DNA of 39,666 bases, taken from NCBI GenBank assembly GCA_945860255.1, contig CAMAQI010000002.1, forward strand, positions 1 through 39,666, in the 5' to 3' direction. Origin of the DNA: Methylacidiphilum caldifontis. Lineage in GTDB: Bacteria; Verrucomicrobiota; Verrucomicrobiia; Methylacidiphilales; CAMAQI01. The notes below the pieces were generated by a model. The model was not told the DNA's origin. It did no database searches and saw only the letters and a program-made list of their open reading frames with translations. Position 1 is the stretch's first letter, and each line of letters begins with the position of its first letter. This document shows, one piece after another, positions 9,164-38,693 of the stretch. Made by a program: the position numbers and the translations under genes.

Positions 9164-9334
9164 ACTTGTGACAAACATATATGAAAGTGAAGAAATTGAC
9201 AAGATCACCAGACAAAACTAGGTTGAATTCATGAAAGTCGTCAATGTTCAAGAGGCAAAGATCACTCACGATCAAAACTTGAACCTTATGGCGCAATCAT
9301 CCTTTGGACTTAATTTTTTTCTTTAAGTTTGATT

Positions 9335-13550: not shown

Positions 13551-13829
13551 ATGATCAATATAAAAATTAAAGTATATTCTCTTAACTCATTTCCTCTTAA
13601 CATTCAGATGGATTTATTCAGTGATGATCCTCTAATAGTGACTACTCCAATTGTTAGAAAAAAATCACAAAAAAAACGATATAATAACAGAAAAGAGCAA
13701 TTGTACGCAAATCCTGACGAGTATTTCGTGAGCGATCTATTGCGAGAAGGCCACATTAAATGTCCTCGTCTTGAAAGGTTCTTGTCTGCTAAAATTCAAT
13801 CTCTAAGACAATCCAAAAAGATTTCGTAA
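13551..13829 (+). CDS. Small basic protein (92 aa), paralog 2
   Basis: Same SD spacing as paralog 1. The N-terminus YSLNSFPLNIQMDLF is shared with the 12925 ORF. Confidence 0.4.
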   Translation: MINIKIKVYSLNSFPLNIQMDLFSDDPLIVTTPIVRKKSQKKRYNNRKEQLYANPDEYFVSDLLREGHIKCPRLERFLSAKIQSLRQSKKIS

Positions 13830-13896
13830 TTGTTTGAATAAGTTTAAACACTCTTTTAACTTATTCAATGTCACAACTTTTATCGTAAAAGGCGCT

Positions 13897-13919
13897 GTGT
13901 CATGATGTCTTTTGTCCCT
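13897..13919. repeat. Right copy of the perfect 23-bp inverted repeat
   Basis: gtgtcatgatgtcttttgtccct is the exact reverse complement of 10676-10698. Confidence 0.95.
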
Positions 13920-14007
13920 GCCAGCCCATTCCTTTAATAATCAATCTTTTATTAAAGAAACTTGCTATTTTCTTTAATAAGAATATTCTTATTAAAGGGT
14001 TTATCGT

Positions 14008-16667: not shown

Positions 16668-16704
16668 CCTTTCCTCTGCGTTCCTCTGTGCGCTCTGCGG
16701 TTAA
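16668..16704. repeat. Solo right arm of the TTAACC-type element (A1)
   Basis: cctctgcgttcctctgtgcgctctgcggttaa: three phased ctctgcg heptads ending in GGTTAA. No left arm was found. Confidence 0.7.
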
Positions 16705-16812
16705 GATTGCATTTTCTCTTCTCTTAAGTTGACGCCTATGCGACCTTTAGGGGCACAGCTGTGAAGTAGATTTTTTAGGAAGTTTACTTCATTAGAAGAG
16801 TGATGTATCTTC

Positions 16813-17643: not shown

Positions 17644-17728
17644 AGGATTAATGTAACGGTTTTAGAGAAAATTGCGAAAAAGAAATTTTCAATAAGTATT
17701 ATGCATTTAAGAAAGGAGAGAAGACATT

Positions 17729-17872
17729 TTAACCGCCGAGGGCGCAGAGTAACGCAGAGGAAAAACTCCTAAAACTCTCTGCAAGACTGGAATGCAGGAA
17801 AAAGAATGTTTTGGGTTTTAAAAACAAAAAATAAGAATTTACTCTGCGTATCTCTGCGCCCTCTGCGGTTAA
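17729..17872. repeat. 144-bp palindromic TTAACC element (A2), MITE-like
   Basis: ttaaccgccgagggcgcagagtaacgcagagg ... actctgcgtatctctgcgccctctgcggttaa. Each arm has three cgcagag heptads. Confidence 0.85.
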
Positions 17873-17958
17873 TCAATTTTTTTGTATTTCCCTAGTCGTT
17901 CTCTGGATTGTCGACTACTGGAAGGAGATGATCAAGACTTCAAGGATGTGGCCCGGAT

Positions 17959-17993
17959 TTGACATAGTTCTAAAAAAGACTTACTGTAATTAC
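17959..17993 (+). promoter_or_regulatory. Sigma70-like promoter placed for a leaderless mazEF transcript
   Basis: TTGACA (17959-17964), 17 nt, TACTGT (17982-17987), 6 nt, ATG(17994). Confidence 0.55.
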
Positions 17994-18284
17994 ATGAAAC
18001 CTTTTTTGGAATGTAAGTTGACGGCGATTGGGAATTCGAGGGGAATTCGGGTGCCGCAGGCGGTGATTGAAAAGTATGGGTTGGAGGGGGGAATTTTGGT
18101 GGAAACATTGGAGGATCGTCTTGTTCTTCGGCCTGCGAAACCGATGACCTCGAAGTTGTCTTGGAAAGAGACGTATAAAGCCATGGCGAAGGATGAAGGG
18201 TTGGAATCGGATTGGGCGACGGCAGATCAGGATGGGTTGGAGGAGATTCCGTGGGATGAGCCAAAGAAATCGAGGACAAAATGA
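17994..18284 (+). CDS. mazE: AbrB/MazE/SpoVT-family antitoxin
   Basis: KLTAIGNSRGIRVPQAVIEKYGL swapped-hairpin motif. Stop overlaps the toxin start (ATGA). The start at 17994 is supported by promoter geometry. Confidence 0.8.
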   Translation: MKPFLECKLTAIGNSRGIRVPQAVIEKYGLEGGILVETLEDRLVLRPAKPMTSKLSWKETYKAMAKDEGLESDWATADQDGLEEIPWDEPKKSRTK

Positions 18285-18616
18285 TTTCGATGCCTAAGCG
18301 ATATGAGATCTATCTCGTTCGACTCGATCCGGTGGAGGGAAGTGAGATCGGAAAGACGAGGCCTTGTGTGATCCTGAGTGATGATACGAGGAACCAATAT
18401 TTGAAGACTGTGGTCGTGTGCCCCATCACGAGTCAGCTTCGCGATGATTGGCGGTGTCGTTTAAGGGTTGGCTGTGCGGGTCGAGAGGCGGATGTGGCTG
18501 TGGATCAGATTCGGACGGTGAATAAAAGTCGATTGGTAAAGCGAATTGATCGGTTGAAACCGAGTGGAGCGCAGCTTTTGCGGGAGTTGGTCGTGGAGAT
18601 GTACGGATCGGCATAG
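18281..18616 (+). CDS. mazF: MazF/PemK-family endoribonuclease toxin
   Basis: YEIYLVRLDPVEGSEIGKTRPCVILSDD is the classic MazF/PemK N-terminus. Confidence 0.9.
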   Translation: MISMPKRYEIYLVRLDPVEGSEIGKTRPCVILSDDTRNQYLKTVVVCPITSQLRDDWRCRLRVGCAGREADVAVDQIRTVNKSRLVKRIDRLKPSGAQLLRELVVEMYGSA

Positions 18617-18628
18617 GAGTAAGACAGT

Positions 18629-18783
18629 TTAACCGCAGAGGAAATCCCTTTTTTAGTTTTTAAAACCCAAAACATTTTTTTTCCTGGATTCCAGCCTTCC
18701 TGAGAGTTTTAGGAGTTTTTCCTCTGCGTTACTTCTTGTCCGCCGTAGTCATTCGACGGAGGAGGATGCCTCCTCTGCGGTTA
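18629..18783. repeat. 155-bp TTAACC element (A3), inverted copy of A2
   Basis: The ~85-nt core gtttttaaaacccaaaacatt...gagagttttaggagtttttcctctgcgttac matches the reverse complement of A2 with few mismatches. Termini are ttaaccgcagagg / cctctgcggttaa. Confidence 0.85.
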
Positions 18784-18837
18784 AATTCGGTTTTCTTTGT
18801 ATTGAAGCATGGGCGATGAGTCGTCTAGGCTTTCAAC

Positions 18838-21257: not shown

Positions 21258-21355
21258 CCGCTAAAGGGAAACGCAACCCCGACAGTGAGTACGGGGCAGG
21301 AAAACGCCAAGTGAAGAGGGAATAAACCACTGATCTACATTAATTTTCGCTGATT
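21250..21355 (+). repeat. E-type repeat (E1): TTAACC left arm + conserved 30-mer hairpin + AACCAC tri-heptad arm
   Basis: gggattaaccgc .. caaccccgacagtgagtacggggcagg .. aaccactgatctacattaattttcgctgatt. The upstream gene's TAA lies inside TTAACC, and the element abuts the serpin ATG. Confidence 0.85.
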
Positions 21356-25261: not shown

Positions 25262-25393
25262 AGAGATTTACCGCCAAGGAAGAGACAAATAAGGCTAAGG
25301 AAATATATCCATTAAACCACTGATATGCATTTATTTGGTCTTATCAATTTATGAATTGATTTAATTCGTGTTCATTTGTGTCTATTCGTGGTT
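25262..25393. repeat. E-type partial repeat (E4) plus an opposed solo tri-heptad arm
   Basis: agagatttaccgccaagg..ttaaaccactgatatgcatttatttgg (25262-25338) and attcgtgttcatttgtgtctattcgtggttt (25366-25393). Confidence 0.7.
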
Positions 25394-25455
25394 TGGAGTG
25401 TTTTTTGCGGTTTTTGATTTGAATCCCTCTGGCCCTTGCTTAGGGTCATTCGTAC

Positions 25456-26690: not shown

Positions 26691-26796
26691 GAGGGATTAA
26701 CCGCCAAGTTAAAGGCAACCCCGACAATGAGTACGGGGCAGGAAAAGGCCAATGCTGCATGACTAATCACTGATCTGCACTGATTTTCGCTGATTT
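26691..26796 (+). repeat. E-type repeat (E2)
   Basis: gagggattaaccgccaag .. caaccccgacaatgagtacggggcagg .. aatcactgatctgcactgattttcgctgattt. Starts 14 nt after the lpxK stop and ends 11 nt before the next ORF. Confidence 0.85.
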
Positions 26797-27493: not shown

Positions 27494-27685
27494 AGAGGGA
27501 TTAACCGCCACTCCCTGCGTGATAACGCAATTAAAAATAGGAAACCATTTGGAGAGCCGAGGGTAGGCAACTAGAAGCTGGGGTGAGAAGGGGCTTCGTA
27601 GGAAAAGTCAACCCCGACAATGAGTCGAGGCAGGTAAACGGCATGTAAAGAGAGTATAACCACTCATTTGCACTTATTTAGCTCA
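27494..27685 (+). repeat. E-type repeat (E3) with ~85-bp internal insertion
   Basis: gagggattaaccgccact ... caaccccgacaatgagtcgaggcagg ... ataaccactcatttgcacttattta. Confidence 0.75.
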
Positions 27686-27709: not shown

Positions 27710-28093
27710 TTACGTCGCTAGTTTTAATCCTGCGCTGACAAAGAGACCAAAGTCGTTTGAATTAAGGGTTGCAAACATAGCATGATGTTCGATGGCCGAT
27801 GCGGCGATAAAAGAGTCGAAACGAAGATCTCTTTTTCGTTGGGCTTGATTGAAGAGACGAGCAGAAATTTGGGCTGTTTGTTCGGTAAACGGATGAATAC
27901 GTCCCTCGATCATTTGCAGAACAAGATCGGTCTGACTTTTCTCCACGGGTCCATTGAGAAATTCAGCCCAGACGACTGCACTCACGCTTATCTTTTTTCC
28001 TGTTTGAATCCACTGGGTCAGGTTTTGGATGACTGGGGGATGTTTTGCGATAACGCCGATCAGGTAGTTGGTGTCGAGGTGAATGAGGTCCAT
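27710..28093 (-). CDS. vapC: PIN-domain toxin (VapC family)
   Basis: MDLIHLDTNYLIG ... FIAASAIEHHAMFATLNSNDF acidic PIN residues. Confidence 0.8.
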   Translation of the reverse strand: MDLIHLDTNYLIGVIAKHPPVIQNLTQWIQTGKKISVSAVVWAEFLNGPVEKSQTDLVLQMIEGRIHPFTEQTAQISARLFNQAQRKRDLRFDSFIAASAIEHHAMFATLNSNDFGLFVSAGLKLAT

Positions 28094-28374
28094 TGTTTTT
28101 CTTCGCGTTGTGAATAGGCTTTTCGAGATTCGTTTATTTCAGCTAGCCAAGTTTTAGCAGTCTCCGGAGAGATCGAATTATTTTGAAGGGCTTGAAGTGC
28201 AGCAAGCGGGGTCACTTTTTCTTGAATGGAACGGGCTTCCGCCTCTGCTCCACGATCGATTAATTGTCGAAGCGTCTCCGATTTTGAGATTTTCCACTGT
28301 TTTGCAAGCCAATTGAGGTTATCGACCGTCTTTGGTTCAAGGCTGTAGCTGGAACGAATAATTGTTAGTGGCAT
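28060..28374 (-). CDS. Ribbon-helix-helix (CopG-like) antitoxin
   Basis: MPLTIIRSSYSLEPKTVDNLNWLAKQWKISKSETLRQLIDRG. Lies upstream of VapC and overlaps it. Promoter reads TTGATT, 16 nt, TATGCT, 7 nt, ATG(28374). Confidence 0.65.
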   Translation of the reverse strand: MPLTIIRSSYSLEPKTVDNLNWLAKQWKISKSETLRQLIDRGAEAEARSIQEKVTPLAALQALQNNSISPETAKTWLAEINESRKAYSQREEKQWTSFTSTPTT

Positions 28375-28525
28375 AATGAGTAGCATAACAAATTTCCTAG
28401 ATAAATCAAATCTTAAGAGGATGATAAATCAATGCCTCTTAGGAATGCACGAATGCATGGAAAGAAATTTTCTTCTTAAAAAAAATTAAACTATCATTTT
28501 CCTGCATTGCTGTCTTATCAGGACT

Positions 28526-29329
28526 CTAAAATGGAATTTTCCTTCGGTATGGTATCGCTGTAAATAAATGGATCATGAGCATCCCTCCTGTAAGATCAGC
28601 AAATGAAACGAGCGATAATATCCCTAAATGCATCCCCCCCATCCAGAGCCATGGAATCCATCGAAATTTTGGAATAAGAGCTAATGGTAATGCCATCACT
28701 TCGCCCGCCAATGCAAACCAAGTTAGTCCATGAATTATCCCTTCGGGCATTTTGAGAAACCAATCTCTGAGAAAGTAATCTCGGGCAAGTGGATTTTGTG
28801 CCATATGGATCAATGCTGTCCCATCTTGCCAACTCGGACTTTGGATTTTGAGTATCCCACTAAACGTGTAACCCGCCATCAAAAGTATCCATGCTACCCA
28901 CCATGCTTCATAGGGAAGTCGGCCTTCTTTCCATTTTGATTCGTGTGGCATAACAGCCAACAAAAGATAGAGTAGCCCAAGATACGGAACTGAGGGATTA
29001 AGGGTTAGAGGATTTTGATGAAAAAGTGCTGTGGCTCCGTACCACAAAAATGCGGAACACGTTCTCCGATAATAATTCGTTAGGAGCCCACAAGATGCCA
29101 GACAAAGTGCAATCAACCAAAACAATATGCCTGTCGGTGTTCCAATCCAAGCGAGAGGATTTGGAAAGAGTCGATAAAGAGGATGAATACGCGGATCGGT
29201 GAAGATCCCTTGATTGCTAAAGAGTTCAGCTCCATAAGGAATGAGTGTGGCAAAATGCCAAAAACTGAAACAACCAAACAAAATTCTGAATTTTTGAAAG
29301 GGAGTTGTTTTCATTGCGTGTATTCCCAT
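28526..29329 (-). CDS. HTTM-domain-like polytopic membrane protein (SdpB-like?)
   Basis: FQKFRILFGCFSFWHFATLIPYGAELFSNQGIF resembles the HTTM N-terminal signature. Multiple TM segments. Confidence 0.5.
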   Translation of the reverse strand: MGIHAMKTTPFQKFRILFGCFSFWHFATLIPYGAELFSNQGIFTDPRIHPLYRLFPNPLAWIGTPTGILFWLIALCLASCGLLTNYYRRTCSAFLWYGATALFHQNPLTLNPSVPYLGLLYLLLAVMPHESKWKEGRLPYEAWWVAWILLMAGYTFSGILKIQSPSWQDGTALIHMAQNPLARDYFLRDWFLKMPEGIIHGLTWFALAGEVMALPLALIPKFRWIPWLWMGGMHLGILSLVSFADLTGGMLMIHLFTAIPYRRKIPF

Positions 29330-29802
29330 CGCTCAGTTCGTCCACGCGTTTGGGTTTGGATCTGTATTTTAACCTGTTCTGCGTCGTGAGGTATTTGAAG
29401 CACTTCACGAAGTACTCCTGGCTTCTGTAAAGCGTATCTCCAAACTGTCTGACGAACTGGTTCTGATAAACGTGGTGCATACGCGATGGCAGCTCCATAA
29501 ACATTTCGACGAAAATAGGGCCCCTGAAGTTTAGCATAAAGCTCTGGTGTGATCTCTTGTTCCCAAAATGGAACCGTCTCATTATTGCGAAATGCTTGCA
29601 TGACAAATTTCGAGGCAAATGGCTCTAAGCCCTGTGCATCACAAAATACTTTTGGATATGGCGAAAATCCATAAGCAAGCCCGAGTCCCTTGAGTAAGCC
29701 CATATTAAAAATTTCCCCTAACATGGCCCAAAATCCGATAAAAAGAATGATCAGATAATGGAATTTTATCATTTTCATATTTTTGGAATCTGACATTTCC
29801 AA
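29311..29802 (-). CDS. Hypothetical N-terminally anchored 163-aa protein (possible SdpA-like partner)
   Basis: Overlaps both neighbouring genes (operon). One N-terminal TM segment. No motif recognised with certainty. Confidence 0.45.
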   Translation of the reverse strand: MEMSDSKNMKMIKFHYLIILFIGFWAMLGEIFNMGLLKGLGLAYGFSPYPKVFCDAQGLEPFASKFVMQAFRNNETVPFWEQEITPELYAKLQGPYFRRNVYGAAIAYAPRLSEPVRQTVWRYALQKPGVLREVLQIPHDAEQVKIQIQTQTRGRTERWEYTQ

Positions 29803-30584
29803 CGTTTAGAGCACCCGAAACAGGAAGGGAGTATTTGAAGCGGTGGTTTTTGATCGAGTTCTTGAGAATGCACATCGCGAAAAGCAAGGATGTCATCAAA
29901 ACGATCTTCTTTCTCTGGTTCAAATCCGCAAATCTGTGGAGTCACTTTAGGATTATAAAATGATCTAAAGATCATGTCCCAAAGTGGAAGATCTGCAAAA
30001 TTTTGCGTATGATGATTACGCTGATGGTGAACCCGGTGGGACTCCGGGCGTTGAATTAAATAACCAACCCAGTGCGGGGTCCGTACATTCCAGTGGTAAA
30101 AGTACTCTGCCAATGCGATGAGATAAGTGTAGATTACGCCACTCATCGAACTGCATCCGAGTATCGGATAGATGAGAAGTGTGCTGATCCAAGAATTAAT
30201 CAGGATTTCAACAGGATGTTTGTAGAAGCTAGTTAGAACTTCTATTCTATTTGCTGAATGATGGAGTTGATGACAAACCTTCCAAAAAAATTGCGACTGA
30301 TGTCGATATCGATGCCAGAAATAATATACCCCTGTAGAAATAAAATAGGCGATAAACGCTGCTACGGTGTCGGAAAAGAGATCTTGAAAATGAAAGAATG
30401 AAAATCCTTGTATCCATTTTTCCCAGAGCACTCCTGCGAGTATAATGACAAGTGCTTGAATTACATTTAATAATACAATCCTCTGCCACCAGCCAGGAAC
30501 TTGAGGTAGTTTTTCATTCGGCCAAATTCTTTCAGCACAGATCATCAGTACTGCCACTGTGATGAGGACAAAGATCGTGATCAT
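29775..30584 (-). CDS. Fatty acid hydroxylase / sterol desaturase superfamily membrane protein
   Basis: Histidine boxes HRYRH, HQLHHS and HRVHHQRNHH in a polytopic membrane protein. Confidence 0.85.
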   Translation of the reverse strand: MITIFVLITVAVLMICAERIWPNEKLPQVPGWWQRIVLLNVIQALVIILAGVLWEKWIQGFSFFHFQDLFSDTVAAFIAYFISTGVYYFWHRYRHQSQFFWKVCHQLHHSANRIEVLTSFYKHPVEILINSWISTLLIYPILGCSSMSGVIYTYLIALAEYFYHWNVRTPHWVGYLIQRPESHRVHHQRNHHTQNFADLPLWDMIFRSFYNPKVTPQICGFEPEKEDRFDDILAFRDVHSQELDQKPPLQILPSCFGCSKRWKCQIPKI

Positions 30585-30630: not shown

Positions 30631-31233
30631 TTATTCACCGAGGCCGACGGAGCCAAGGCCGCCGCCTTTTTCTTTGTAGACGGTATCGATCGCGAGTCCT
30701 GCCATGAGGAGGAGGAGGGCGTTTTTCGGAGCATGGATCGTGACCATGTAGCTGTCGGCGGTTGTGAAGAGTTCTTTGAGCGTGCTTTCCCATTTTTTGC
30801 TGACATTGCCGAGTTCTTGTCCTTCTTTATCGAGAAACTTGAAATTCCAGCCGATCCAGTTTCCTTTGACCTCTGCAATTTGATTTTCGTTGGCATCAAA
30901 GACGTTGAATCCGCCACCAATACTGATCCATTTCGACAGAAAGTGACCGACCTTTTGTTCTTCGCTATTGAGGATCAAGACTTTGCTTCTCCAGAAGGTA
31001 AAACCGCGATAGAGAATGGCCGAGGGCTTTGATTGTCCCTCTTCCGTGATTTCGATGCGGGTAGAAATAATGCGGTTTCCCAGCACCATCGTCAGGAGTT
31101 GTTTCCACCACGGTTTGATCTCCTTAGCAACGGCGATCTTTTGTCCGGTCCTCGGATCAAGGATGTCGTAGGTATCTTTGATTTTGAGAAGGCCGACTTG
31201 TTCCCGAATGAGGTATTGGGTGAGATTAAACAT
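30631..31233 (-). CDS. Phospholipid scramblase / LURP-one-related (Tubby-like fold) family protein
   Basis: LIREQVGLLKIKDTYDILDPRTGQKIAVAKE and a repeated beta-strand pattern resemble bacterial scramblase-family proteins. Confidence 0.5.
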   Translation of the reverse strand: MFNLTQYLIREQVGLLKIKDTYDILDPRTGQKIAVAKEIKPWWKQLLTMVLGNRIISTRIEITEEGQSKPSAILYRGFTFWRSKVLILNSEEQKVGHFLSKWISIGGGFNVFDANENQIAEVKGNWIGWNFKFLDKEGQELGNVSKKWESTLKELFTTADSYMVTIHAPKNALLLLMAGLAIDTVYKEKGGGLGSVGLGE

Positions 31234-31508
31234 AGATTAGAGGTAGTCGATAAGGGGGGAGTCGTCAAATCCTCCAATCCCCAAGCCGGTTTTGTTTTAG
31301 GCGCTTATCCTAGATGAAATATTTTAAGCTGAGAAGGATGCGGTGTTTGCTTGGGGATGAAGTGCTATCGCACGGGGATGTTGGTAAGGGAGGAAAAGGG
31401 CTTAGAGAGGTTTAATTTTCGTGTCCATTGGTGTCCATTCGTGGTTGGGAATTTTGTTTTCACTTTTTCTCTCTCTAGTCGAGTGAGGAGGAATTGACTA
31501 CTCCAAAA
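31234..31508 (+). repeat. B-type composite repeat, copy 1 (~275 bp)
   Basis: Near-identical to 31959-32226. Contains stem tccccaagc (31278-31286) / gcttgggga (31349-31357), a solo tri-heptad arm (31418-31446) and hairpin tagtcga-N11-tcgacta. Confidence 0.9.
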
Positions 31509-31510
31509 GA

Positions 31511-31795
31511 ATGAAGGTATGGAAAGTGGTTTACCGCATAGAAGCACTGGTCGATATTGAAAATTTCGTGGTCTATTGTGAGAGATCTGATGCTTCGCAA
31601 AAATTTACAAATGTGATGATGGATCAAATTGCATCGCTTCAACGAAATCCCTATCGCTTTCGTTCAGTTTCGAATAGATCTGGTTATCGTCGGATGCTTT
31701 TTCGGCCATTCCAAGTTTTTTATGAGATCGATGAAACCACACAAACGGTGAGAGTCATGCGTGTTTGGCACTCAGCAAGGGACCTTTGGGAGTAG
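31511..31795 (+). CDS. parE: ParE/RelE-family toxin
   Basis: VVYRIEALVDIENFVVY ... GYRRMLFRPFQVFYEIDETTQTVRVMRVWHSARD follows the ParE pattern. Confidence 0.7.
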   Translation: MKVWKVVYRIEALVDIENFVVYCERSDASQKFTNVMMDQIASLQRNPYRFRSVSNRSGYRRMLFRPFQVFYEIDETTQTVRVMRVWHSARDLWE

Positions 31796-31954
31796 TTTTA
31801 GAGGGACGGATTTTTTGAAAAGAGTGGCAATTCTTTGTCGTGCCACATGTTCTGGAATATCGTGGGTAAGACCCACTCCCTGAATCGCTTCATCCAAAGC
31901 AGCTAAAGCAGCAGGGGAAATTTCAACGGATTTTTGGGAAGCGATTTTGGACAT
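31772..31954 (-). CDS. Small antitoxin-like protein, convergent with and overlapping the ParE-like gene
   Basis: 60 aa with ISPAALAALDEAIQG..DIPEHVARQRIATLF. Canonical promoter reads TTGACG, 17 nt, TACAAT, 6 nt, ATG(31954). Confidence 0.5.
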   Translation of the reverse strand: MSKIASQKSVEISPAALAALDEAIQGVGLTHDIPEHVARQRIATLFKKSVPLKLLPKVPC

Positions 31955-31958
31955 GAGA

Positions 31959-32226
31959 AGATTGTAGTCGTTGGGAGGGAAGTCGTCAAATCTCCAATCC
32001 CCAAGCGGGTTTTGTTTTAGACTCTTATCCTAGATGAAATATTTTAAGGTGAGAACGATGCGGTGTTTGCTTGGGGATGAAGTGCTGTCGCACGTGGATA
32101 ACGGGAGTAAATAGAGTCTAAGAAGGTTTTTAATTTTCGTGTCAATTCGTGTTCATTCGTGGTTGGGATTTTTTGGATCCACGTTTTCTCTCTCTAGTCG
32201 AGTGAGGAGGAATCGACTACTGCAAA
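31959..32226 (+). repeat. B-type composite repeat, copy 2
   Basis: Stem 31998-32006 / 32069-32077, tri-heptad arm 32136-32164. Aligns with B1 over its whole length. Confidence 0.9.
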
Positions 32227-32252
32227 TCACATGAACCTAAAAAAGCAGTTGG

Positions 32253-32387
32253 AACCACGGATATCACGGATCACACGGATTTCAAACAGTTTAGGGGAAA
32301 TTGTACGTTCACCTTGTGGGTGAAGGAAAAAACAGAGGTTAATTTTCATAAATTCTTCCATCCGTGTTATCTGTGTTATCCGTGGTT
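32253..32387. repeat. 135-bp palindromic AACCAC element (C1)
   Basis: aaccacggatatcacggatcacacggat ... atccgtgttatctgtgttatccgtggtt, with an internal hairpin ttcacc-ttgtg-ggtgaa. Confidence 0.9.
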
Positions 32388-32498
32388 AAATGGATTGCCG
32401 ATTTTAGGATGAAACTTTGCCCACATGCTCATTTAAATCATGGAAAAGCAGAGGGCCTCCCTCTATTGACAACCAAAGTGGTTGTGTTACGGTTTTTT

Positions 32499-32738
32499 AT
32501 GGTTTCAATGACGTTGAAAGATATTCCCGTGCCCGTGCATCAGGCTTTGAAATTAAGAGCGAAGGAACATGGACGGAGTCTAAATAAGGAGGCACTGGCT
32601 TGTTTGGAAAGTATTCTCCTTCCAAGGAAAGTGGATACCGATCAGTTACTAACCGAGATCCGGCGGCATCGAGAGGGGCTTCCCGGAAAATTATCCGATC
32701 AACTTCTAGAAGAGGCTCGTACGAGTGGACGTCCATGA
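32499..32738 (+). CDS. VapB-type antitoxin (Arc/FitA-like RHH)
   Basis: MTLKDIPVPVHQALKLRAKEHGRSLNKEALACLE. ATGA overlap with the PIN gene. Promoter reads TTGACA (32466-32471), 16 nt, TACGGT, 5 nt, ATG. Confidence 0.75.
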   Translation: MVSMTLKDIPVPVHQALKLRAKEHGRSLNKEALACLESILLPRKVDTDQLLTEIRRHREGLPGKLSDQLLEEARTSGRP

Positions 32739-33133
32739 TCGTTGCCGATTCTAATCTGATCGCCTATTTATTAATTCCAGGAGAGAAAAGCCTTTTGGCA
32801 GAGTCGATTTTCCTCAAAGATTCGGAATGGGCAGTCCCCCTTCTTTGTCGTTCTGAGATCCGAAATATCGTAACCCTTTATATGCGTCAGCAACAGATGA
32901 CGCTGACACAGGCGAAAGCGACTTTGGAAAAGGCGAAACTGGTTTGGAAAGAAAGGGAGTTTGCGATTCCCTCTGGAGAGATTTTAGAGCTGACCTCGCA
33001 GTATAAGGTTTCGGCGTATGATGCCGAGTTTGTGGTGCTTGCCAAAATGTTGAATATTCCTCTGCTGACTTTTGATCAGCCCCTCCGACGGATTTTTCCG
33101 ATGATTGCAGTTGACCCGATGACTTTTGCCTAA
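32735..33133 (+). CDS. vapC: PIN-domain toxin (VapC family)
   Basis: MIVADSNLIAYLL ... SAYDAEFVVLAKMLNIPLLTFDQ. Confidence 0.8.
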   Translation: MIVADSNLIAYLLIPGEKSLLAESIFLKDSEWAVPLLCRSEIRNIVTLYMRQQQMTLTQAKATLEKAKLVWKEREFAIPSGEILELTSQYKVSAYDAEFVVLAKMLNIPLLTFDQPLRRIFPMIAVDPMTFA

Positions 33134-33238
33134 ATCCCCAAGCCGGTTTTGTTTTAGGCTCTTATCCTAGATGAAATATTTTAGGGCGAGAAGGATGCGG
33201 TGTTTGCTTGGGGATGAAGTGCTGTCGCACGGGGATGG
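33133..33238 (+). repeat. B-type repeat, partial copy 3 (palindrome module only)
   Basis: Stem 33135-33143 / 33206-33214. Fills the whole gap between the convergent VapC and DUF1648 genes. Confidence 0.9.
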
Positions 33239-33239
33239 G

Positions 33240-33755
33240 TTATTTTTGAGGTTTTCGGAGAAAATAATAGTAGAGTGAGAAGACCCAGCCTCCCAAGAAG
33301 AGATGCAGGAATGTTTTATATCTCCCCATGATCTCATTATTAAAATGGGGTGGATGGCTCTGATTCGAATGTGAAACGAGATGAAAAATCATCGCCAAAA
33401 ATATCAAAAGCCCGATCGATAGGATCATGAGCATTTTTAAAATAAAGAAACAGCCTCTTGGATAATGCTCTGCCGATCTCCAATAATTGGCATTTGGGAC
33501 ATTCAGGTATTTTGAAGGGAGTTGCTGGATCACGGACCCGATACTGATTAAAAAAACTGTAATCCCAGGTCCGAACGCCAGAAAAAAAACCATGTTTTTG
33601 CTTTTTGTCATCCATCCATTAGGTGTTCCTGAACTATTAAAATGAGTCGCTACTTTTTCAGGAAGACTCCCGGATTCACGAACAATATACCCGCTATAAA
33701 GAATAAGCGTTGCTAGGAGGATAAAGATCCACCCTTTTTCTATCCGAGGTCTCAT
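33240..33755 (-). CDS. DUF1648/SdpI-like membrane protein
   Basis: SLPEKVATHFNSSGTPNGWMTKSKNMVF is typical of the DUF1648 N-terminus. Four TM segments. Confidence 0.55.
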   Translation of the reverse strand: MRPRIEKGWIFILLATLILYSGYIVRESGSLPEKVATHFNSSGTPNGWMTKSKNMVFFLAFGPGITVFLISIGSVIQQLPSKYLNVPNANYWRSAEHYPRGCFFILKMLMILSIGLLIFLAMIFHLVSHSNQSHPPHFNNEIMGRYKTFLHLFLGGWVFSLYYYFLRKPQK

Positions 33756-33783
33756 CTCTTGAGTTTAATCGATCGATTTCGAT

Positions 33784-34188
33784 TTACAACTTCATAACCT
33801 CTAGTGATGCAATCCCACTTTCGATGATTCTACGATCTGCGGTGATGAGGGGGACTTGATGATGGAGAGCTGTCGCCGTGATCATCCGATCGTCGGGATC
33901 GTCGTGGAAAGTTTGAGGAAGCTTCAAGAGTTCAAATAAAATCGGCTTGGAGAGATCGATGATTTGGATGCCGATCGATTCGGTGTAGGTATCGATGAAC
34001 TCTTGCGGAGAGAGATGGAGATGAATTCGGTTTTTCTGATGCAGTAAAATAGTTTCCCAGAGAGTGATGCTCGAGATTCCAAAAATCGAGTCATCGGGAA
34101 GATTTTTAATCGCTTCCGCGCGGGGATCTCCGAGGATCAGCCAAAGCCAGGCGTGGGTATCAAGGAGATGGGAAATGTTCTTCATCAT
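33784..34188 (-). CDS. vapC: PIN-domain toxin (VapC family)
   Basis: LLDTHAWLWLILGDP ... DPDDRMITATALHHQVPLITADRRI. Confidence 0.8.
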   Translation of the reverse strand: MMKNISHLLDTHAWLWLILGDPRAEAIKNLPDDSIFGISSITLWETILLHQKNRIHLHLSPQEFIDTYTESIGIQIIDLSKPILFELLKLPQTFHDDPDDRMITATALHHQVPLITADRRIIESGIASLEVMKL

Positions 34189-34414
34189 TGGTCCATTTCA
34201 CATCCAGAGGTTTTGTCAGATCTGTGATTACTGCGGCTTTATCTTTTCCAATCCCAAAGAGTTTTTGTGGGCTCATCGTTGTTACTTCAAGTGGTAGAAG
34301 TCGAGCCACCGGTCGTCCATGTTTAGTGATCGTGAATCCCTCGCCTGTTTCAGAAACCTGATCCATCAACTCAAGGCATTTCACCTTAAAGAGGGTTGCA
34401 GGGATGAAAGTCAT
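34160..34414 (-). CDS. Phd/YefM-type antitoxin
   Basis: FTITKHGRPVARLLP core. Overlaps the PIN gene. Promoter reads TTGATT, 16 nt, TATAGT, 6 nt, ATG(34414). Confidence 0.7.
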   Translation of the reverse strand: MTFIPATLFKVKCLELMDQVSETGEGFTITKHGRPVARLLPLEVTTMSPQKLFGIGKDKAAVITDLTKPLDVKWTNDEEHFPSP

Positions 34415-34437
34415 AAAATGACTATAAAAGTGGTTAG

Positions 34438-34522
34438 AAAATAATCAAGCCGGATTCGTGTAATATTATGCGTTTGGGAAATATTTGAGGAAGAGAGTAG
34501 TTCCGTCAGGGCTTGATTATGA
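34438..34522 (+). repeat. D-type palindromic repeat, copy 1
   Basis: Stem ataatcaagcc (34441-34451) / ggcttgattat (34510-34520) around a ~58-nt loop. Homologous to the B palindrome module. Confidence 0.85.
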
Positions 34523-34594
34523 TTGGGATCGGTTTTGTGTTTTTTTCGGCTCGGTCCTCTTGTCCCATGATCAGGCATCTACTATTAGAATATT

Positions 34595-34900
34595 ATGAAG
34601 TATGAACTGATCATTGAACCTGCGGCGGCGAAACAGCTTCAAGAATTTTTGGATTACGCTCAATTTGAGCCCGCTGCGACCCGGTTTGTGGAGGATTTAG
34701 TGAGGAGAGTCCAAATCTTAAGAGATTTCCCTAAACTAGGGAAGGGGAAGGGATTCCATAAGGGAATTAAATATCGCTGTTTGCTTGTTAAACAATGGAG
34801 GGCGATTTATCGAGTGCAAATAGAATCAAAGAAAATCACGATTTATGCTTTTTATCACCCCGCTCAGCATTTTGATATTTCCGCTTCCCTTGAGCAATAA
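34595..34900 (+). CDS. parE: ParE/RelE-family toxin
   Basis: LIIEPAAAKQLQEFLDY ... YRCLLVKQWRAIYRVQIESKKITIYAFYH. Promoter reads TTGTCC, 17 nt, TATTAG, 6 nt, ATG. Confidence 0.7.
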   Translation: MKYELIIEPAAAKQLQEFLDYAQFEPAATRFVEDLVRRVQILRDFPKLGKGKGFHKGIKYRCLLVKQWRAIYRVQIESKKITIYAFYHPAQHFDISASLEQ

Positions 34901-35036
34901 ATTCCGTCATTTCTTTTTTAAATTGATCATATGGAATTCCGCTTGTCGGTGTTTGCTGTGAAAGTGCTTCTTCCAAAGCCATTAATTCACCCGAGCTAAA
35001 CGAATGCGTCTGAAAAGTGCCATTTTTTTCGTGCAT
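34836..35036 (-). CDS. Small antitoxin-like protein, convergent with and overlapping the ParE-like gene
   Basis: 66 aa with SSGELMALEEALSQ..GIPYDQFKKEMTEFI. Promoter reads TTGACG (35066-35071), 17 nt, TACAAT (35043-35048), 6 nt, ATG(35036). Confidence 0.5.
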   Translation of the reverse strand: MHEKNGTFQTHSFSSGELMALEEALSQQTPTSGIPYDQFKKEMTEFIAQGKRKYQNAERGDKKHKS

Positions 35037-35040
35037 ACGA

Positions 35041-35153
35041 GAATTGTAGTCGAAGGGCGTTTAGTCGTCAAATAATCAAGCCGGGTTTGTGTAATATTTT
35101 GCGTTTGGGAAAAAGTCGAGGAAGAGAGTAGTTCCGTCAGGGCTTGATTATGT
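35041..35153 (+). repeat. D-type repeat, copy 2 (with the promoter module shared with B repeats)
   Basis: attgtagtcg..agtcgtcaaat followed by stem 35072-35082 / 35141-35151. Confidence 0.85.
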
Positions 35154-35236
35154 TATGAATTGGCGGGGAGATTTACCCCTTATTTTCACTGATCTGCGCT
35201 TATAAAACCAGATTTGAACCTAGAGAAACCAGTTTG

Positions 35237-35264
35237 AACCACGGATATCACGGATCATACGGAT
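35237..35264 (+). repeat. Solo left arm of a C1-type element (C2)
   Basis: aaccacggatatcacggatcatacggat differs from the C1 left arm at 1 position. Confidence 0.8.
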
Positions 35265-35296
35265 TTTTAATGATTAAACCTAAATCCGGCAGTTGG

Positions 35297-35432
35297 AACC
35301 ACAGAATACACAGAACACACTGAATTTTAAGGGTTTATAAAAAACAAGGAATTCACCTGCAGGGTGAACGAAAAAGCCAACTCTTTTTTTTCATAACATT
35401 CTCTTTCTGTGTGTTTTGTGTATTCTGTGGTT
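35297..35432. repeat. 136-bp palindromic AACCAC element (C3), heptad variant
   Basis: aaccacagaatacacagaacacac ... gtgtgttttgtgtattctgtggtt. Internal hairpin ttcacc-tgcag-ggtgaa as in C1. Confidence 0.9.
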
Positions 35433-35454
35433 GATTCCGACTGTTTTTTTTAGG

Positions 35455-35766
35455 TTAAATTTCTCGAAATATCTCTACACGAAATTCGGAGACCGATTTC
35501 ATGAGAATACTATGCGGGCCTTTTTCAAGGCCTTCGGCCCTGATCTCGGTGAGAGTTGAATTAAATATTTCGTCGTTTTTAAATTCAAAAAGAGCGTGAT
35601 ATTCAGGGAGGGATGTTTTCGGCTTTTGAGAGGAATTTTTGAGAAGTCTTCCCCTGAGGATATACTCTTTTAATCTCAATTCTTCGAGAAATTCCTTAGC
35701 AGCTCCTAGACATGTACTTTCAGGAACATCTGGTTTGATCGAAAAAAAGACGTGATAGTGAATCAT
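35455..35766 (-). CDS. Hypothetical small protein (possibly ferredoxin-like alpha/beta fold)
   Basis: 103-aa ORF ending 9 nt upstream of mnmG on the same strand. No family recognised with confidence. Confidence 0.45.
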   Translation of the reverse strand: MIHYHVFFSIKPDVPESTCLGAAKEFLEELRLKEYILRGRLLKNSSQKPKTSLPEYHALFEFKNDEIFNSTLTEIRAEGLEKGPHSILMKSVSEFRVEIFREI

Positions 35767-35775: not shown

Positions 35776-37674
35776 CTACACTGCGTCTCCGCGACTTTGC
35801 GCGAGATCTGTCTTTTCTTTCTGCGGCCCCCTCTGCGTCCAGACCATGACTAAACTGAGGTCGCTCGGATTCACGCCACTGATTCGACCGGCTTGCCCAA
35901 AGGTCCGAGGACGGATCTGTTTTAATTTTAATCGGGCCTCTTTTTTGAGGCCGGGGATCGTATCGTAATCCAACCAGTCGGGGATTCCCTTCTCTTCGGA
36001 GGATTTCATCTTTTCAATCTGAGCCATCTCGCGGGCGATGTAGCCGGAGTACTTGAATTCAGTTTCGAGTTGCACGGCGACCTCAGGATCGACCTGTTGA
36101 TACTCTTCTGGAAGATCTTTCCAAAAGAAGGTCGGGCGCTTGAGAAGCTCCGAGAGGCGGTCGTGGCCAATCTTCGCCGATTGCATTTGGGTGCGGAAGC
36201 GGTCGATGGTCGCGAGCTTTTGTTTGAAATGGGCGTAACGCTCTTCGGTGACAAGTCCGATCTCTTTTCCCCGCTCAGTCAATCGTTGATCGGCATTGTC
36301 TTGGCGGAGGAGGAGTCGGTATTCGGCCCGTGAGGTAAACATTCGATAGGGCTCCTGGGTTCCCTTCGTGACGAGGTCATCGATGAGAACTCCAATATAC
36401 GCCTCGTGACGGCCGAGGATAAAGGCCGGTTTCCCTTGGACTTGAAGGGCGGCATTAATTCCGGCCATCAATCCTTGACCGGCGGCCTCTTCATATCCCG
36501 AGGTTCCGTTAATCTGCCCTGCAAAGTAGAGCCCTTGGACCTTCTTCGTTTGGAGCGTTTGATAAAGCTGCGTTGGCGGACAGAAATCGTATTCGACGGC
36601 ATAACCGGGACGCATGATCTCTGCGTTTTCAAGACCTTCAATGGAGCGAATGAAATCGTATTGAACCTCAAAGGGGAGGGAGGTCGAGCAGCCCTGAAGA
36701 TAAATCTCATCGGTGTGTCGACCCTCTGGCTCAAGGAAAAGTTGATGACGATCCTTATCGGCAAACTTCACCACCTTATCCTCAATTGACGGGCAATAGC
36801 GGGGGCCAACCCCTTCGATGATCCCGCAGAACATTGGGGACTTATCAAGATTGGCTCGAATAATCGCATGCGTCTTGGCCGAAGTGTAAGTCACCCAACA
36901 AGGCATTTGTTCCACGTGGAACTTTCCCTCCCGATACTCGTTCAAGGTAAAGAGGTCCTCAGGCCCTTTCTTTAAGGTATGAACCATGTAGGAAAAGGCG
37001 GGGGGAGGGAAGTCACCCGGTTGAAGGGCGAGATTATTGAAATTGATGCTTTGCTTCAGGAGTCGCGGCGGGGTTCCGGTTTTGAGGCGTTCGACTTCGA
37101 ATCCAAGGCGTTTCAAGCATTCGGAGAATCCGCTGGAGCTGTCCCCCATGCGTCCTCCAGCCTGGTTTTGGAGGCCGACATGGAGGAGTCCACGCAAAAA
37201 GGTTCCGGTGGTTACAACGACCGATTTCGCCCGATAATGTACTCCTAAATTTGTTGTAACTCCTTGAATGACATCATCTTGTGTAATTAAATCGGCGATC
37301 TGACCCTGTTTGACATCGAGGTTTGGTTGGCGTTCGCAGGTGTATTTAACACGAAATTGGTAAGCCTTTTTATCGCATTGGGCGCGAGGTCCACGGACAC
37401 TGGGACCTTTCGAGGCGTTGAGCATTCGGAATTGGATTCCGGTGGCATCGGTGTTCATCGCCATTTCGCCGCCGAGGGCATCGATCTCGCGGACGAGATG
37501 ACCTTTGGCAAGACCGCCGATCGCGGGGTTGCAGGACATTTGACCGATGGTGTCGCAGTTCATCGTGAGCAGGAGCGTTTGCGCTCCCATGCGGGCAGCG
37601 GCGAGGGCGGCCTCGACTCCGGCGTGACCGGCACCGATGACGATGACGTCGTAAATTTTAGGATAAGTAAACAT
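35776..37674 (-). CDS. mnmG: tRNA uridine 5-carboxymethylaminomethyl modification enzyme MnmG (GidA)
   Basis: YDVIVIGAGHAGVEAALAAARMG FAD motif, GQMSCNPAIGGLAKGHLVREIDALGG, length 632 aa. Confidence 0.95.
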   Translation of the reverse strand: MFTYPKIYDVIVIGAGHAGVEAALAAARMGAQTLLLTMNCDTIGQMSCNPAIGGLAKGHLVREIDALGGEMAMNTDATGIQFRMLNASKGPSVRGPRAQCDKKAYQFRVKYTCERQPNLDVKQGQIADLITQDDVIQGVTTNLGVHYRAKSVVVTTGTFLRGLLHVGLQNQAGGRMGDSSSGFSECLKRLGFEVERLKTGTPPRLLKQSINFNNLALQPGDFPPPAFSYMVHTLKKGPEDLFTLNEYREGKFHVEQMPCWVTYTSAKTHAIIRANLDKSPMFCGIIEGVGPRYCPSIEDKVVKFADKDRHQLFLEPEGRHTDEIYLQGCSTSLPFEVQYDFIRSIEGLENAEIMRPGYAVEYDFCPPTQLYQTLQTKKVQGLYFAGQINGTSGYEEAAGQGLMAGINAALQVQGKPAFILGRHEAYIGVLIDDLVTKGTQEPYRMFTSRAEYRLLLRQDNADQRLTERGKEIGLVTEERYAHFKQKLATIDRFRTQMQSAKIGHDRLSELLKRPTFFWKDLPEEYQQVDPEVAVQLETEFKYSGYIAREMAQIEKMKSSEEKGIPDWLDYDTIPGLKKEARLKLKQIRPRTFGQAGRISGVNPSDLSLVMVWTQRGPQKEKTDLAQSRGDAV

Positions 37675-37719
37675 GGAAGATTGGAAGGATAAAGGATGAT
37701 AGGGAAAAAGTCGAAGAGA

Positions 37720-37909
37720 TTAACCGCAGAGGACGCCGAGTTTCGCAGAGGAATACAAATTTATTTTTACCCGAGAGGGCTCTAGCTTCATGCAAGGACT
37801 GACGGAGAAATACAACAGTCGCCGAGTTTTCAAATGTATTTTGGATTTCAAACAAAATCCTGGTGTCATTTGGTATTCCTTAGCGTTCCTCAGCGCCCTC
37901 TGCGGTTAA
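37720..37909. repeat. 190-bp palindromic TTAACC element (A4)
   Basis: ttaaccgcagaggacgccgagtttcgcagagg ... cttagcgttcctcagcgccctctgcggttaa. Confidence 0.85.
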
Positions 37910-38034
37910 CTTCTTTTTCTCCTCTTGTCGATGCAGACCTCAACGCCCACAGCTGAGGAATGAACATCACGATTTACGAAAAGGAAAAATCCACGGTATT
38001 GCCAAATGGTTCAGATGGTATTACCCTTGATTTC

Positions 38035-38277
38035 ATGAAAACCATCAGTCTCAAACTTCCTCCGGATTTGGAGAAGGAAATTCGCCACGCAGCGGATCGG
38101 CAGGGGGTTCCTCTTTCGGAATGGATTCGGGGAGCGATGGAGGAAAGGCTGAAAAAAGAGCCAAGAAAGAAACAAATGACGGCGGCAGATACGTTCGGAA
38201 AATATCTGGGGATCGCCGGGGATGGACCACATGATTTGTCCACCAATCCCAAACATATGGAAGGATTTGGAAAATGA
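38035..38277 (+). CDS. Ribbon-helix-helix (CopG-like) antitoxin
   Basis: MKTISLKLPPDLEKEIRHAADRQGVPLSEWIRGAMEERL. ATGA overlap with the PIN gene. Promoter reads TTGCCA, 17 nt, TACCCT, 7 nt, ATG. Confidence 0.75.
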   Translation: MKTISLKLPPDLEKEIRHAADRQGVPLSEWIRGAMEERLKKEPRKKQMTAADTFGKYLGIAGDGPHDLSTNPKHMEGFGK

Positions 38278-38693
38278 ACCTCGTGATGGATACGGGTCCC
38301 CTGGTTGCCATATTAAATCCTCGCGACCAATATCATTCGCAAATTGCGGCACTTCTTCCTTCATTGCCACAAACTTGGAAGACCTGCGAAGCGGTGATCA
38401 CAGAGGCTTTATTTCTTTTTCAAAATAATGCCAGGGCCGTTGAGGGTTTGGGAAAAATGCTTCGGGAATCTATTCTCGAACTCGACTATTCAGCGAATCA
38501 AGACCTTGAGGTGATTTTCCGAGAGATGAAATCTTATCAGAAACTTCCGATGTCCTTTGCGGATGCCTGTTTAGTCCGGATGATGGAGCGGGAGAAGAAC
38601 GCACGACTTTTTACCCTGGATCGGCATTTTGAGGTTTACCGGTATAAAGGGAGACGGTTGATCCCGAGGGTTGAGATCGGAAAGAAGAATTAA
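38274..38693 (+). CDS. vapC: PIN-domain toxin (VapC family)
   Basis: MNLVMDTGPLVAILNPRDQYH ... SFADACLVRMMEREKNARLFTLDRHF. Confidence 0.8.
   Translation: MNLVMDTGPLVAILNPRDQYHSQIAALLPSLPQTWKTCEAVITEALFLFQNNARAVEGLGKMLRESILELDYSANQDLEVIFREMKSYQKLPMSFADACLVRMMEREKNARLFTLDRHFEVYRYKGRRLIPRVEIGKKN

Follow-up and report, generated by a model that had tools for sequence, protein, structure and literature searches.

A variable array of toxin-antitoxin modules bounded by directly repeated junction elements next to mnmG in Methylacidiphilum caldifontis

The stretch of DNA analyzed here (39,666 nucleotides, referred to as the window) is nearly the whole of one metagenome contig of Methylacidiphilum caldifontis (k141_99113, 39.7 kb). 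Its MnmG protein is 92% identical to a protein from a metagenome-assembled genome labelled Verrucomicrobiota bacterium and shares 70-75% identity with other Verrucomicrobia proteins. Between a scramblase-like gene and mnmG, the window carries five same-strand copies of a short repeat, which we call E, and the genes between these copies are mostly toxin-antitoxin (TA) pairs. The locus is a hypervariable island of self-contained TA modules in a fixed place, and comparison of related sequences shows, as far as alignments can, that recombination has occurred at the E repeats. We give about even chances to the reading that this is a cassette array whose turnover comes from directly repeated E copies recombining with each other, probably through the homologous recombination of the host.

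The mechanism that we propose is as follows. Recombination of directly repeated E copies with each other would cut out the intervening DNA, presumably in circular form, and would leave behind a solo or hybrid E. Re-entry at another E would alter the order of the modules while keeping their orientation. E would thereby serve as portable homology for general recombination of the host as the main engine, and a protein would probably also recognize its arms, be it a recombinase or a regulator of the leaderless promoters next to E.

Turnover of modules at the E copies

The genes of the array and its borders were identified by Pfam profile search of the window proteins. They are given here together with the E copies, whose scores come from a covariance model (CM).

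30631-31233, - strand: scramblase/LOR-like gene (PF03803), conserved left anchor of the array
31277-31358, + strand: E copy B1 (CM 91.8 bits; arms ATCCCCAAGC / GCTTGGGGAT)
31511-31795, + strand: ParE1 toxin gene (PF05016, E-value 9.6e-11)
31772-31954, - strand: small gene s1, convergent to ParE1, conserved as a protein (dN/dS 0.1-0.26), candidate antitoxin
31997-32078, + strand: E copy B2 (CM 97.2 bits)
32499-32738, + strand: FitA-like ribbon-helix-helix (RHH) antitoxin (PF22513, E-value 6.6e-11)
32735-33133, + strand: PIN toxin of the FitA pair (PF01850, E-value 3.4e-6)
33134-33215, + strand: E copy B3 (CM 93.6 bits), solo or hybrid copy at the site of the 1954 additional bases of the relative L013
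33240-33755, - strand: DUF1648 membrane gene (PF07853)
33784-34188, - strand: PIN toxin of the Phd pair (PF01850, E-value 1.8e-15)
34160-34414, - strand: Phd antitoxin (PF02604, E-value 1e-8)
34441-34520, + strand: E copy D1 (CM 91.5 bits; arms ATAATCAAGCC / GGCTTGATTAT)
34595-34900, + strand: ParE2 toxin gene (PF05016, E-value 1.2e-9)
34836-35036, - strand: small gene s2, convergent to ParE2, conserved as a protein and included in the dN/dS test
35072-35151, + strand: E copy D2 (CM 94.8 bits)
35455-35766, - strand: DUF6614 gene (PF20319), variable among relatives
35776-37674, - strand: mnmG (GIDA domains), conserved right anchor of the array

Both PIN toxins have an upstream, overlapping antitoxin, RHH in one pair and Phd in the other, as in VapBC modules, and ParE1 and ParE2 both belong to the ParE/RelE toxin fold (PF05016). 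A preliminary description of this DNA had listed a ParE-like gene, VapB-VapC, DUF1648, VapC-Phd and a second ParE-like gene in this order, and the Pfam matches agree. It had counted five TA cassettes; the array holds four TA pairs and one membrane gene (DUF1648). The order of its repeats (B1, B2, C1, B3, D1, D2, C2, C3) was recovered by a repeat finder and a degenerate pattern, and there is indeed no repeat between DUF1648 and PIN-Phd, which are separated by a 28-nt gap. The layout is that of a cassette array, as had been proposed: the modules are bounded by same-strand repeats, with all five E copies on the + strand and spaced 631-1310 nt apart. The degenerate B/D pattern had five matches in the window compared with 0.00 expected by chance; the observation holds and goes far beyond chance.

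Six or more states of the locus were found in related contigs, where modules are deleted, replaced and permuted at E. The scramblase-like gene adjoins the first E in the window, in the relatives L013, L016 and L002, and in L070, which has no array. In L013, which has the same flanks, ParE1 is 88% identical to that of the window, and 1954 additional bases lie between two E copies. These bases encode a Transglut_core protein, a PIN protein with a 64-aa partner, and ParE3 with s3. The window has the single copy B3 in their place, and B3 consists of the interior of the L013-type left copy joined to the right flank of the right copy. In L070, whose MnmG falls in the same 90% cluster, there is no array, and the locus consists of the scramblase gene, its promoter, one E (61.7 bits), 353 nt and mnmG. 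L065 (MnmG 92% identical) has a variable region with VapBC modules only, and neither ParE-s modules nor E are present.

Replacement was seen in L061 and L063. Here the orthologous D1 and D2 copies (82-88% nucleotide identity) enclose a ParE1-type module, with protein identities of 55% to ParE1 and 23% to ParE2, while the corresponding slot of the window holds ParE2. The PIN-Phd pair beside D1 is 81% identical to that of the window, and the replacement has one boundary about 35 nt to the right of D1 and the other in the interval from the -10 box of the small gene to its ATG. In L016, a different RHH-PIN module directly follows the scramblase-side E, and homology to the window stops just after ...TCGACTACT, 6-9 nt ahead of the start codon. 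The same module lies beside FitA-PIN in L060 (GCA_945877805.1).

Permutation is seen in L060, where the order is PIN, E, RHH-PIN, a left arm of E only, ParE3-s3, E, Transglut-PIN, E, ParE1-s1, E, a PIN remnant, D1, ParE2-s2, D2, a DUF6614 remnant (155 nt; the gene is missing in L013) and mnmG. Compared with L013, ParE3-s3 and Transglut-PIN are swapped and ParE1-s1 is shifted towards mnmG, and every orientation is kept. Recombination between directly repeated E copies would explain all four outcomes: a deletion with a hybrid E left behind, an empty site that retains one E, a module replaced where the E copies on both sides are conserved, and a permutation that keeps orientation (excision and then re-entry at another E).

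The L013, window and L061 states were each seen again in independent assemblies and are therefore not assembly artifacts. Chimeric assembly is also unlikely, as the repeats are divergent and do not reach the length of the assembly k-mer. The comparison of relatives that the preliminary description had called for has thus yielded presence, absence and reordering of modules, and replacement as well, with boundaries at the B/D repeats. The opposite outcome, a fixed cassette order without breakpoints at the repeats, had been named beforehand as grounds for giving up the idea, and it is not what the relatives show. On these alignments, the reading as a cassette array survives.

Several features indicate that homologous recombination is active in the region. 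B1, B2 and B3 are 93-94% alike within the window while their L013 orthologues are only 64-81% alike, which points to concerted evolution. Deletion junctions lie at microhomology (CAAATAAT in L060 and GGNTTTNG in L016). One module is a mosaic: between window 34595-35036 and L013 10951-11392, ParE2 differs at 4 of 255 sites and the overlapping s2 at 39 of 135, and the C-terminal half of the window s2 resembles s3. This suggests that the window s2 received a gene conversion tract from a ParE3-s3 module that has since been lost from the window. Crossover positions differ from case to case: they fall in the right arm with the GTGC hairpin, in the left arm, in the promoter -10 box with the ATG, or ~35 nt beyond the right arm. 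No recombinase gene is present in the 39.7-kb window (31 kb upstream and 4 kb downstream of the array), as had been noted before, or in the 10-kb flanks of the related loci. General recombination of the host is favored because the crossovers are varied, conversion tracts and microhomology deletions are present, and no recombinase is nearby.

Anatomy and distribution of E

Three repeat families, B, C and D, had been distinguished at the outset. C is separate, as described below, while B and D are subtypes of one element, E, because they align with each other, share an invariant CAAGC/GCTTG and are of near-equal length (80-83 nt). Each copy has inverted arms of 10-12 bp, AT-NNN-CAAGC(C)/(G)GCTTG-NNN-AT, around an interior of 60-63 nt. 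The earlier picture of an ~80-nt imperfect palindrome is correct for these terminal 10-12 bp and not for the ~60-nt interior, which is not palindromic. A constant distance of about 72 bp, close to seven helical turns, separates the centers of the arms. E has a polarity, with SGG-N-TT always directly after the left arm, and no consistent duplication is visible outside the inverted arms. B1 and B2 each lie in one unit of a 265-nt direct duplication (31243-31507 and 31964-32226) on either side of the ParE1 module.

Only the closing stem of E is supported as a structure (RNAalifold with 14 copies; pair counts with 21 copies from five lineages). Five core pairs of the arms are without variation in the 21 copies, and 92.5% of the arm cells are paired, compared to about 80% in shuffles and 31-46% with slid partners. 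These data suggest that the arms are kept complementary, although template switching between inverted arms could produce the covariation without selection. The complementarity could reflect pairing in single-stranded DNA or RNA. Folding of the interior, which evolves quickly, was not above that of shuffles (z -2.1 to +1.8 for 13 variants on both strands), and its identity between some variants goes down to about 44% while its length is unchanged. Of the proposed recombination at palindromes, recombination at the repeats stands, while dependence on structure is unsupported, the interior being unstructured.

Two other roles for E were considered and rejected. An encoded peptide does not fit, as the other interior types do not keep the MKYF... 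frame of the alpha type intact. E as an intrinsic terminator does not fit either, as there is no T-run after either arm and a terminator scan was negative at E.

Left arms of E (AAATCNCCAAGCSGGT...) also occur in isolation, with neither interior nor right arm, at right-hand module ends:

L060, 30-43 and 1003-1023: isolated left arms
L016, 72-92: isolated left arm
L060, 3072-3085, corresponding to L013, 9036-9046: isolated left arm

At the last of these (L060 3081, L013 9046), homology between the strains stops immediately after AAATCAAG.

To map E, we built a covariance model from 21 copies and scanned the whole window with filters off. Only the five copies of the array were found (91-97 bits), and the next best site scored 14.8 bits; all five copies thus fall within 4.2 kb, and the remaining 35 kb of the window has none. 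In ~290 kb of related and unrelated loci, every match was in the homologous locus, between SIMPL/scramblase and mnmG. The E pattern matched 32 times in the JGI metagenome collection; two of these matches were real, and both were syntenic with the array; the other 30 were dismissed as chance, being single matches with non-complementary flanks. No match to the E pattern was found in viral contigs, a scan of the genome collection with the scramblase-like protein found only 42-50% homologues in other phyla, none with E, and Rfam scans gave no match for B/D, with none above the gathering threshold.

In the DNA scanned, E is restricted to the homologous locus and is therefore not a dispersed repeat; scattered copies in both orientations, which such repeats have, were not found. 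An equal abundance of B/D in non-cassette intergenic DNA had been the second possible ground for abandoning a cassette array, and B/D are absent from all other intergenic DNA scanned. This distribution makes it very unlikely that E is a selfish repeat, of the miniature inverted-repeat transposable element or repetitive extragenic palindromic (REP) type, that accumulated here by chance. Such an origin would fit its shortness, its terminal inverted arms of 10-12 bp and the presence of a dispersed hairpin repeat, C, in the same genome. It does not fit the lack of copies beyond the array in 35 kb of window or ~290 kb of related loci, or the synteny with the array of the sole real metagenome matches. 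A single orientation also speaks against it, as may the lack of a visible target-site duplication.

Another possibility is that E is the site of a dedicated site- or structure-specific recombinase of non-integron type that is encoded elsewhere, which would make the locus a functional analogue of an integron array with another type of site. E could then be the attachment site of an undescribed cassette-shuffling system of Verrucomicrobiota, in which an unlinked recombinase would read CAAGC/GCTTG at a fixed spacing and promoter-bearing TA cassettes would be moved in and out of a landing site beside mnmG. We regard both the general and the specific form of this proposal as rather unlikely. They would account for the invariant CAAGC/GCTTG, the covarying adjacent arm positions and the fixed spacing, for E copies that are all on one strand 0.6-1.3 kb apart, and for a module order that is permuted with orientation retained. 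The empty L070 locus retains one E, like an attachment site, left arms stand alone at three junctions, and E was not found outside the array in the window and related loci scanned. On the other hand, no recombinase is encoded near the array, the crossovers are spread over different places and not at one fixed point, and the interior of E has no structure for a structure-specific enzyme to read. The heterogeneous crossover positions also count against site-specific recombination at one fixed point, site-specific recombination being one option in the preliminary description. The arm covariation itself could be a product of template switching.

A number of these observations weigh against recombination by passive homology as the whole explanation. 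The NNN pairs of the arms change on both sides (CCC/GGG, AAT/ATT and, in one copy, CTC/GAG), and passive homology explains neither the invariant arms, nor the constant 60-63-nt spacing, nor an interior at ~44% identity. Covariation, invariance and spacing together suggest specific recognition, as a dedicated recombinase would also give. All E copies are in one orientation, and the isolated left arms at three junctions may indicate that breaks occur preferentially right on the 3' side of CAAGCSGG. Furthermore, all comparison sequences are metagenome contigs, and the E copy count and the absence of a recombinase hold for these contigs and the window.

Promoters, ParE modules and surrounding DNA

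The gaps between modules had been described as filled by repeats. Repeats are present in them, and so are promoters. We identified the following promoter-like sites, some by scoring of the region and others by reading of the sequence.

31243-31271, - strand: scramblase-like gene, TTGACG-N17-TACCTC, about 9 nt before the ATG
31476-31504, + strand: ParE1, TAGTCG-N17-TACTCC, 6 nt before the ATG
31961-31989, - strand: s1, TTGACG-N17-TACAAT, ending 6 nt before the ATG
32195-32223, + strand: copy of the ParE1-type promoter in the 265-nt repeat, followed only by a 30-codon mini open reading frame
32466-32493, + strand: FitA, TTGACA-N16-TACGGT, 5 nt before the ATG at 32499
34421-34448, - strand: Phd, TTGATT-N16-TATAGT, 6 nt before the ATG, with the -35 box in the D1 left arm
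34560-34588, + strand: ParE2, TTGTCC-N17-TATTAG, 6 nt before the ATG
35043-35071, - strand: s2, TTGACG-N17-TACAAT, 6 nt before the ATG

The s1 and s2 promoters are the joint best promoter-like sites of the region, with 10 of 12 matches each, and the site of the scramblase-like gene shares their architecture. Seven promoter-like sites (31476-31510, 31955-31989, 32466-32498, 34415-34448, 34560-34594, 35037-35071 and 17893-17927) have one geometry, in which a -35 box, 16-17 nt and a -10 box are followed by 5-9 nt to the ATG. The ParE1-type geometry also precedes another gene in L016 and L060, and MazE (17893-17927). We infer from these sigma70-like promoters, which end 5-6 nt before start codons, that the array genes are probably leaderless, and every module appears to have its own promoter. 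Several of the seven sites share a recurrent T(A/T)G(A/T)CG ... CGACTAC motif, and the motif TAGTCG...TCGACTAC is also found before MazE, outside the array. The sequence GTAGTCG-N10-AGTCGTCAAAT to the left of B1, B2 and D2 was considered as a recombination core and is better read as a promoter on the minus strand, of which it contains the -10 and -35 boxes.

The proximity of E to these promoters raises the possibility that E is purely a cis-regulatory or insulating element of adjacent leaderless promoters, for example an operator with two sites or a hairpin at the transcript ends of the convergent ParE/s pairs, and that the variability of the modules is incidental to a TA-rich region. For about 13 of 20 copies, E directly adjoins the -35 box of a TTGACG-N17-TAC... 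promoter that is directed away from it, the left arm of D1 provides the -35 box for Phd, and the solo E of L070 lies upstream of the scramblase promoter where there is no TA module. The constant distance of near seven helical turns between arm centers and the position of each copy 3' of at least one transcription unit are also consistent with a regulatory role. However, B3, the L013 copy Bc and the L060 copy Be are preceded by the stop codon of a + strand PIN gene and have no adjoining promoter, there is no T-run for intrinsic termination, and we found no candidate regulator, the s proteins having no recognized DNA-binding domain. Regulation alone also leaves unexplained the breaks of homology at E in five independent comparisons. 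We regard a purely regulatory E as rather unlikely.

The ParE modules have an unusual arrangement in that s1 and s2 each overlap the 3' end of the convergent parE by 24-65 nt. The s genes, of which there are three paralogous conserved types, are under purifying constraint (dN/dS 0.09-0.26, measured outside the parE overlap), and this, together with their conservation as proteins, indicates that they are real genes. No match to the s proteins was found in Pfam or NCBIfam, and no DNA-binding domain was recognized when PDB profiles were searched as well. The best PDB profile match, PaaA2 (a small ParE2 antitoxin), was non-significant at an E-value of 0.75. In type II ParE/ParD-like modules, the cognate antitoxin is expected in the same operon and with recognizable homology to an antitoxin; the s genes are convergent to parE and have no family match, and s1 is a candidate antitoxin without a DNA-binding domain. 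ParE1 and ParE2 are 17% identical and s1 and s2 about 22%, while the promoters and E arms of their modules are nearly identical. The junctions have therefore been kept by constraint or conversion and do not reflect recent common descent with the genes.

The C repeat is of a different kind. It consists of AACC followed by three 9-10-nt words, and about 16 copies, with both strands represented, are spread from 16.7 to 37.9 kb. The words vary by copy (CACGGAT, CGCAGAG, CACGAAT, CACAGAA, CACTGAT) while the architecture is constant. Copies are often inverted pairs that fold into 135-150-nt hairpins (z -6 to -9.5), and their usual place is about 20 nt upstream of a -35-like box, for example that of LpxK, SIMPL, MazE or CopG.

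16670-16707, 17726-17875, 18615-18785, 21325-21355, 25358-25402, 26765-26795, 27658, 31411-31448, 32129-32166, 32248-32392, 35226-35437 and 37714-37915: C copies
31411-31448, - strand: half C-type repeat inside the 265-nt unit, AACC and three 9-nt words
32248-32392, no strand assigned: C1, long hairpin formed by an inverted repeat (fold z-score -6.6)
35226-35266, no strand assigned: C2, half copy, from the repeat finder
35292-35437, no strand assigned: C3, full hairpin (fold z-score -5.95)

No Rfam family was found for C. At E-values up to 1 its hairpins match models of plant miRNA precursors far below threshold, and we rejected these matches as spurious, since they merely reflect long hairpins. 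C has the many copies in both orientations that mark a dispersed repeat; it is a generic genome-wide repeat and not a cassette junction; the preliminary description had counted it among the repeats that lie between modules. A MazE/MazF (PemK) module at 17928-18616 is bracketed by 84-nt inverted repeats (17748-17831 and 18650-18733, 93% complementary) and by C-type repeats, and has the appearance of a TA module enclosed in a large inverted-repeat element.

Variation and TA-like genes are also found outside the array. A second variable stretch, in which no E copies are involved, lies to the left of the scramblase-like gene (window 27710-30584 compared with L013 4116-5049 and with L070). In the window it contains a PIN protein with a 108-aa partner, two proteins of unknown function and a fatty-acid hydroxylase, in L013 a 59-aa gene only, and in L070 the PIN and 108-aa pair is immediately beside the scramblase gene. 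A third ParE gene is at 3015-3329 (- strand), a CopG-PIN pair lies just past mnmG at 37960-38693, and the region 3824-10612 encodes an AAA_15/AAA_21 ATPase, an SNF2 helicase and an AAA_14/DUF4143 ATPase, which are TA- or defense-like. No tRNA or tmRNA was found as an integration target.

Cumulative GC skew reaches a minimum at about 14 kb (12600-14000 region), where 13001-14000 is a stretch of 31% GC, and dnaN (15170-16264, - strand), with a Fic gene beside it, is close to this minimum, which may be a replication origin. DnaA boxes are not enriched near 13-14 kb (10 matches compared with 8.3 expected), and no dnaA gene was seen in the window. Two further repeats were noted: a 47-nt unit with a CCCCGNNNNNGAGTNCGGGG hairpin in a terminator-like position after three genes (21264-21310, 26706-26752 and 27599-27645), and a 45-nt direct repeat on either side of a GH43 gene (1142-1186 and 2981-3025).

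Comparison with integrons and other known systems

To our knowledge, no system other than the integron is well understood among those in which small gene cassettes are stored and reshuffled at a single chromosomal site. Integrons are recognized by attC sites and the integrase IntI, and we know of no IntI for this lineage. The locus described here nevertheless shares much with a sedentary chromosomal integron or a cluster of attC sites that has no integron integrase (CALIN). In both, small modules, TA pairs in many cases, are bounded by same-strand repeats of 80-130 nt at intervals of 0.6-1.3 kb; the repeats are more similar within a genome than between genomes; and the content and order of the modules vary between close relatives. 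No integrase is adjacent here, which is also true of a CALIN. The differences are in the sites and modules. The core of E is CAAGC/GCTTG and that of integrons is AAC/GTT; E is one 10-12-bp helix that closes an unstructured ~60-nt loop, without R and L boxes bearing extrahelical bases; and the modules have a promoter each, mixed gene orientation and heterogeneous crossovers.

It could be argued that this is an integron cassette array in the true sense, with the locus as a CALIN and B and D as divergent attC sites. TA cassettes are frequent in chromosomal integrons (PMC13108822) and integrons are known in Verrucomicrobia (PMC4889954), so that the earlier lead towards integrons was reasonable. 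A CALIN is defined by at least two same-strand sites less than 4 kb apart with no integron integrase nearby (PMC4889954). The five E copies have this layout and no integrase is in the window, which counts only if the sites are attC. The arms CCCCAAG/CTTGGGG also differ from RYYYAAC/GTTRRRY mainly by a C/G swap at the triplet.

Several results go against this interpretation. RYYYAAC...GTTRRRY pairs number zero in 31.2-35.5 kb, and two in the whole window compared with about 7.8 in shuffles, which bears out the previous remark that the cores are unlike the canonical R''/R' boxes; the arms of E read YYCAAGC/GCTTGRR. Only one helix is conserved (the outer 10-11 bp, RNAalifold with 14 copies) with no second helix or L boxes, and the interior folds no better than shuffles. 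Each module has, as far as can be inferred, its own promoter, and gene orientation is mixed. No intI is in the window, and no tyrosine recombinase is there or in the related flanks. We consider a true integron array extremely improbable. On present evidence, the locus is not a member of the integron/attC family and is integron-like only in outcome.

Comparison with short intergenic elements is also instructive. The Correia elements of Neisseria and the enterobacterial repetitive intergenic consensus (ERIC) and REP elements have inverted ends like E, lie beside or contribute -35 and -10 boxes, as the left arm of D1 does for Phd, and are substrates for recombination between copies. In contrast to E, which is found at one locus and on one strand, they occur as tens to hundreds of dispersed copies in both orientations; it is the C repeat of this genome that behaves like this class. 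The formation of solo long terminal repeats (LTRs) by homologous recombination offers another parallel, as B3 is a hybrid of the E copies that flank the 1954 bases of L013 and L070 retains one E. E differs in being only ~80 nt long with a divergent interior, so that the usable homology is short and consists of the arms and the flanking promoter or GTGC hairpin. The ParE modules resemble paaR2-paaA2-parE2 modules in combining a ParE-family toxin with a ~60-residue partner that has no recognizable DNA-binding domain. Here, however, the small gene is convergent, overlaps the 3' end of parE and has a strong promoter of its own, and its antitoxin role is putative. The locus thus contributes an unusual ParE arrangement with a convergent, overlapping and probably leaderless small partner gene.

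The locus resembles an integron in outcome, with loss, swap and reordering of modules at same-strand repeats and an empty site with one repeat, yet has no attC and no integrase in view. If general recombination suffices, short conserved junctions can make a cassette array of a TA-rich region without a dedicated enzyme, and such an enzyme-free route bears on the possible origin of integron cassettes and CALINs. If a dedicated enzyme were at work, this would be a new recombination system, an analogue of integrons that evolved independently of IntI and attC. The locus provides a compact set of natural variants with which either engine can be tested.

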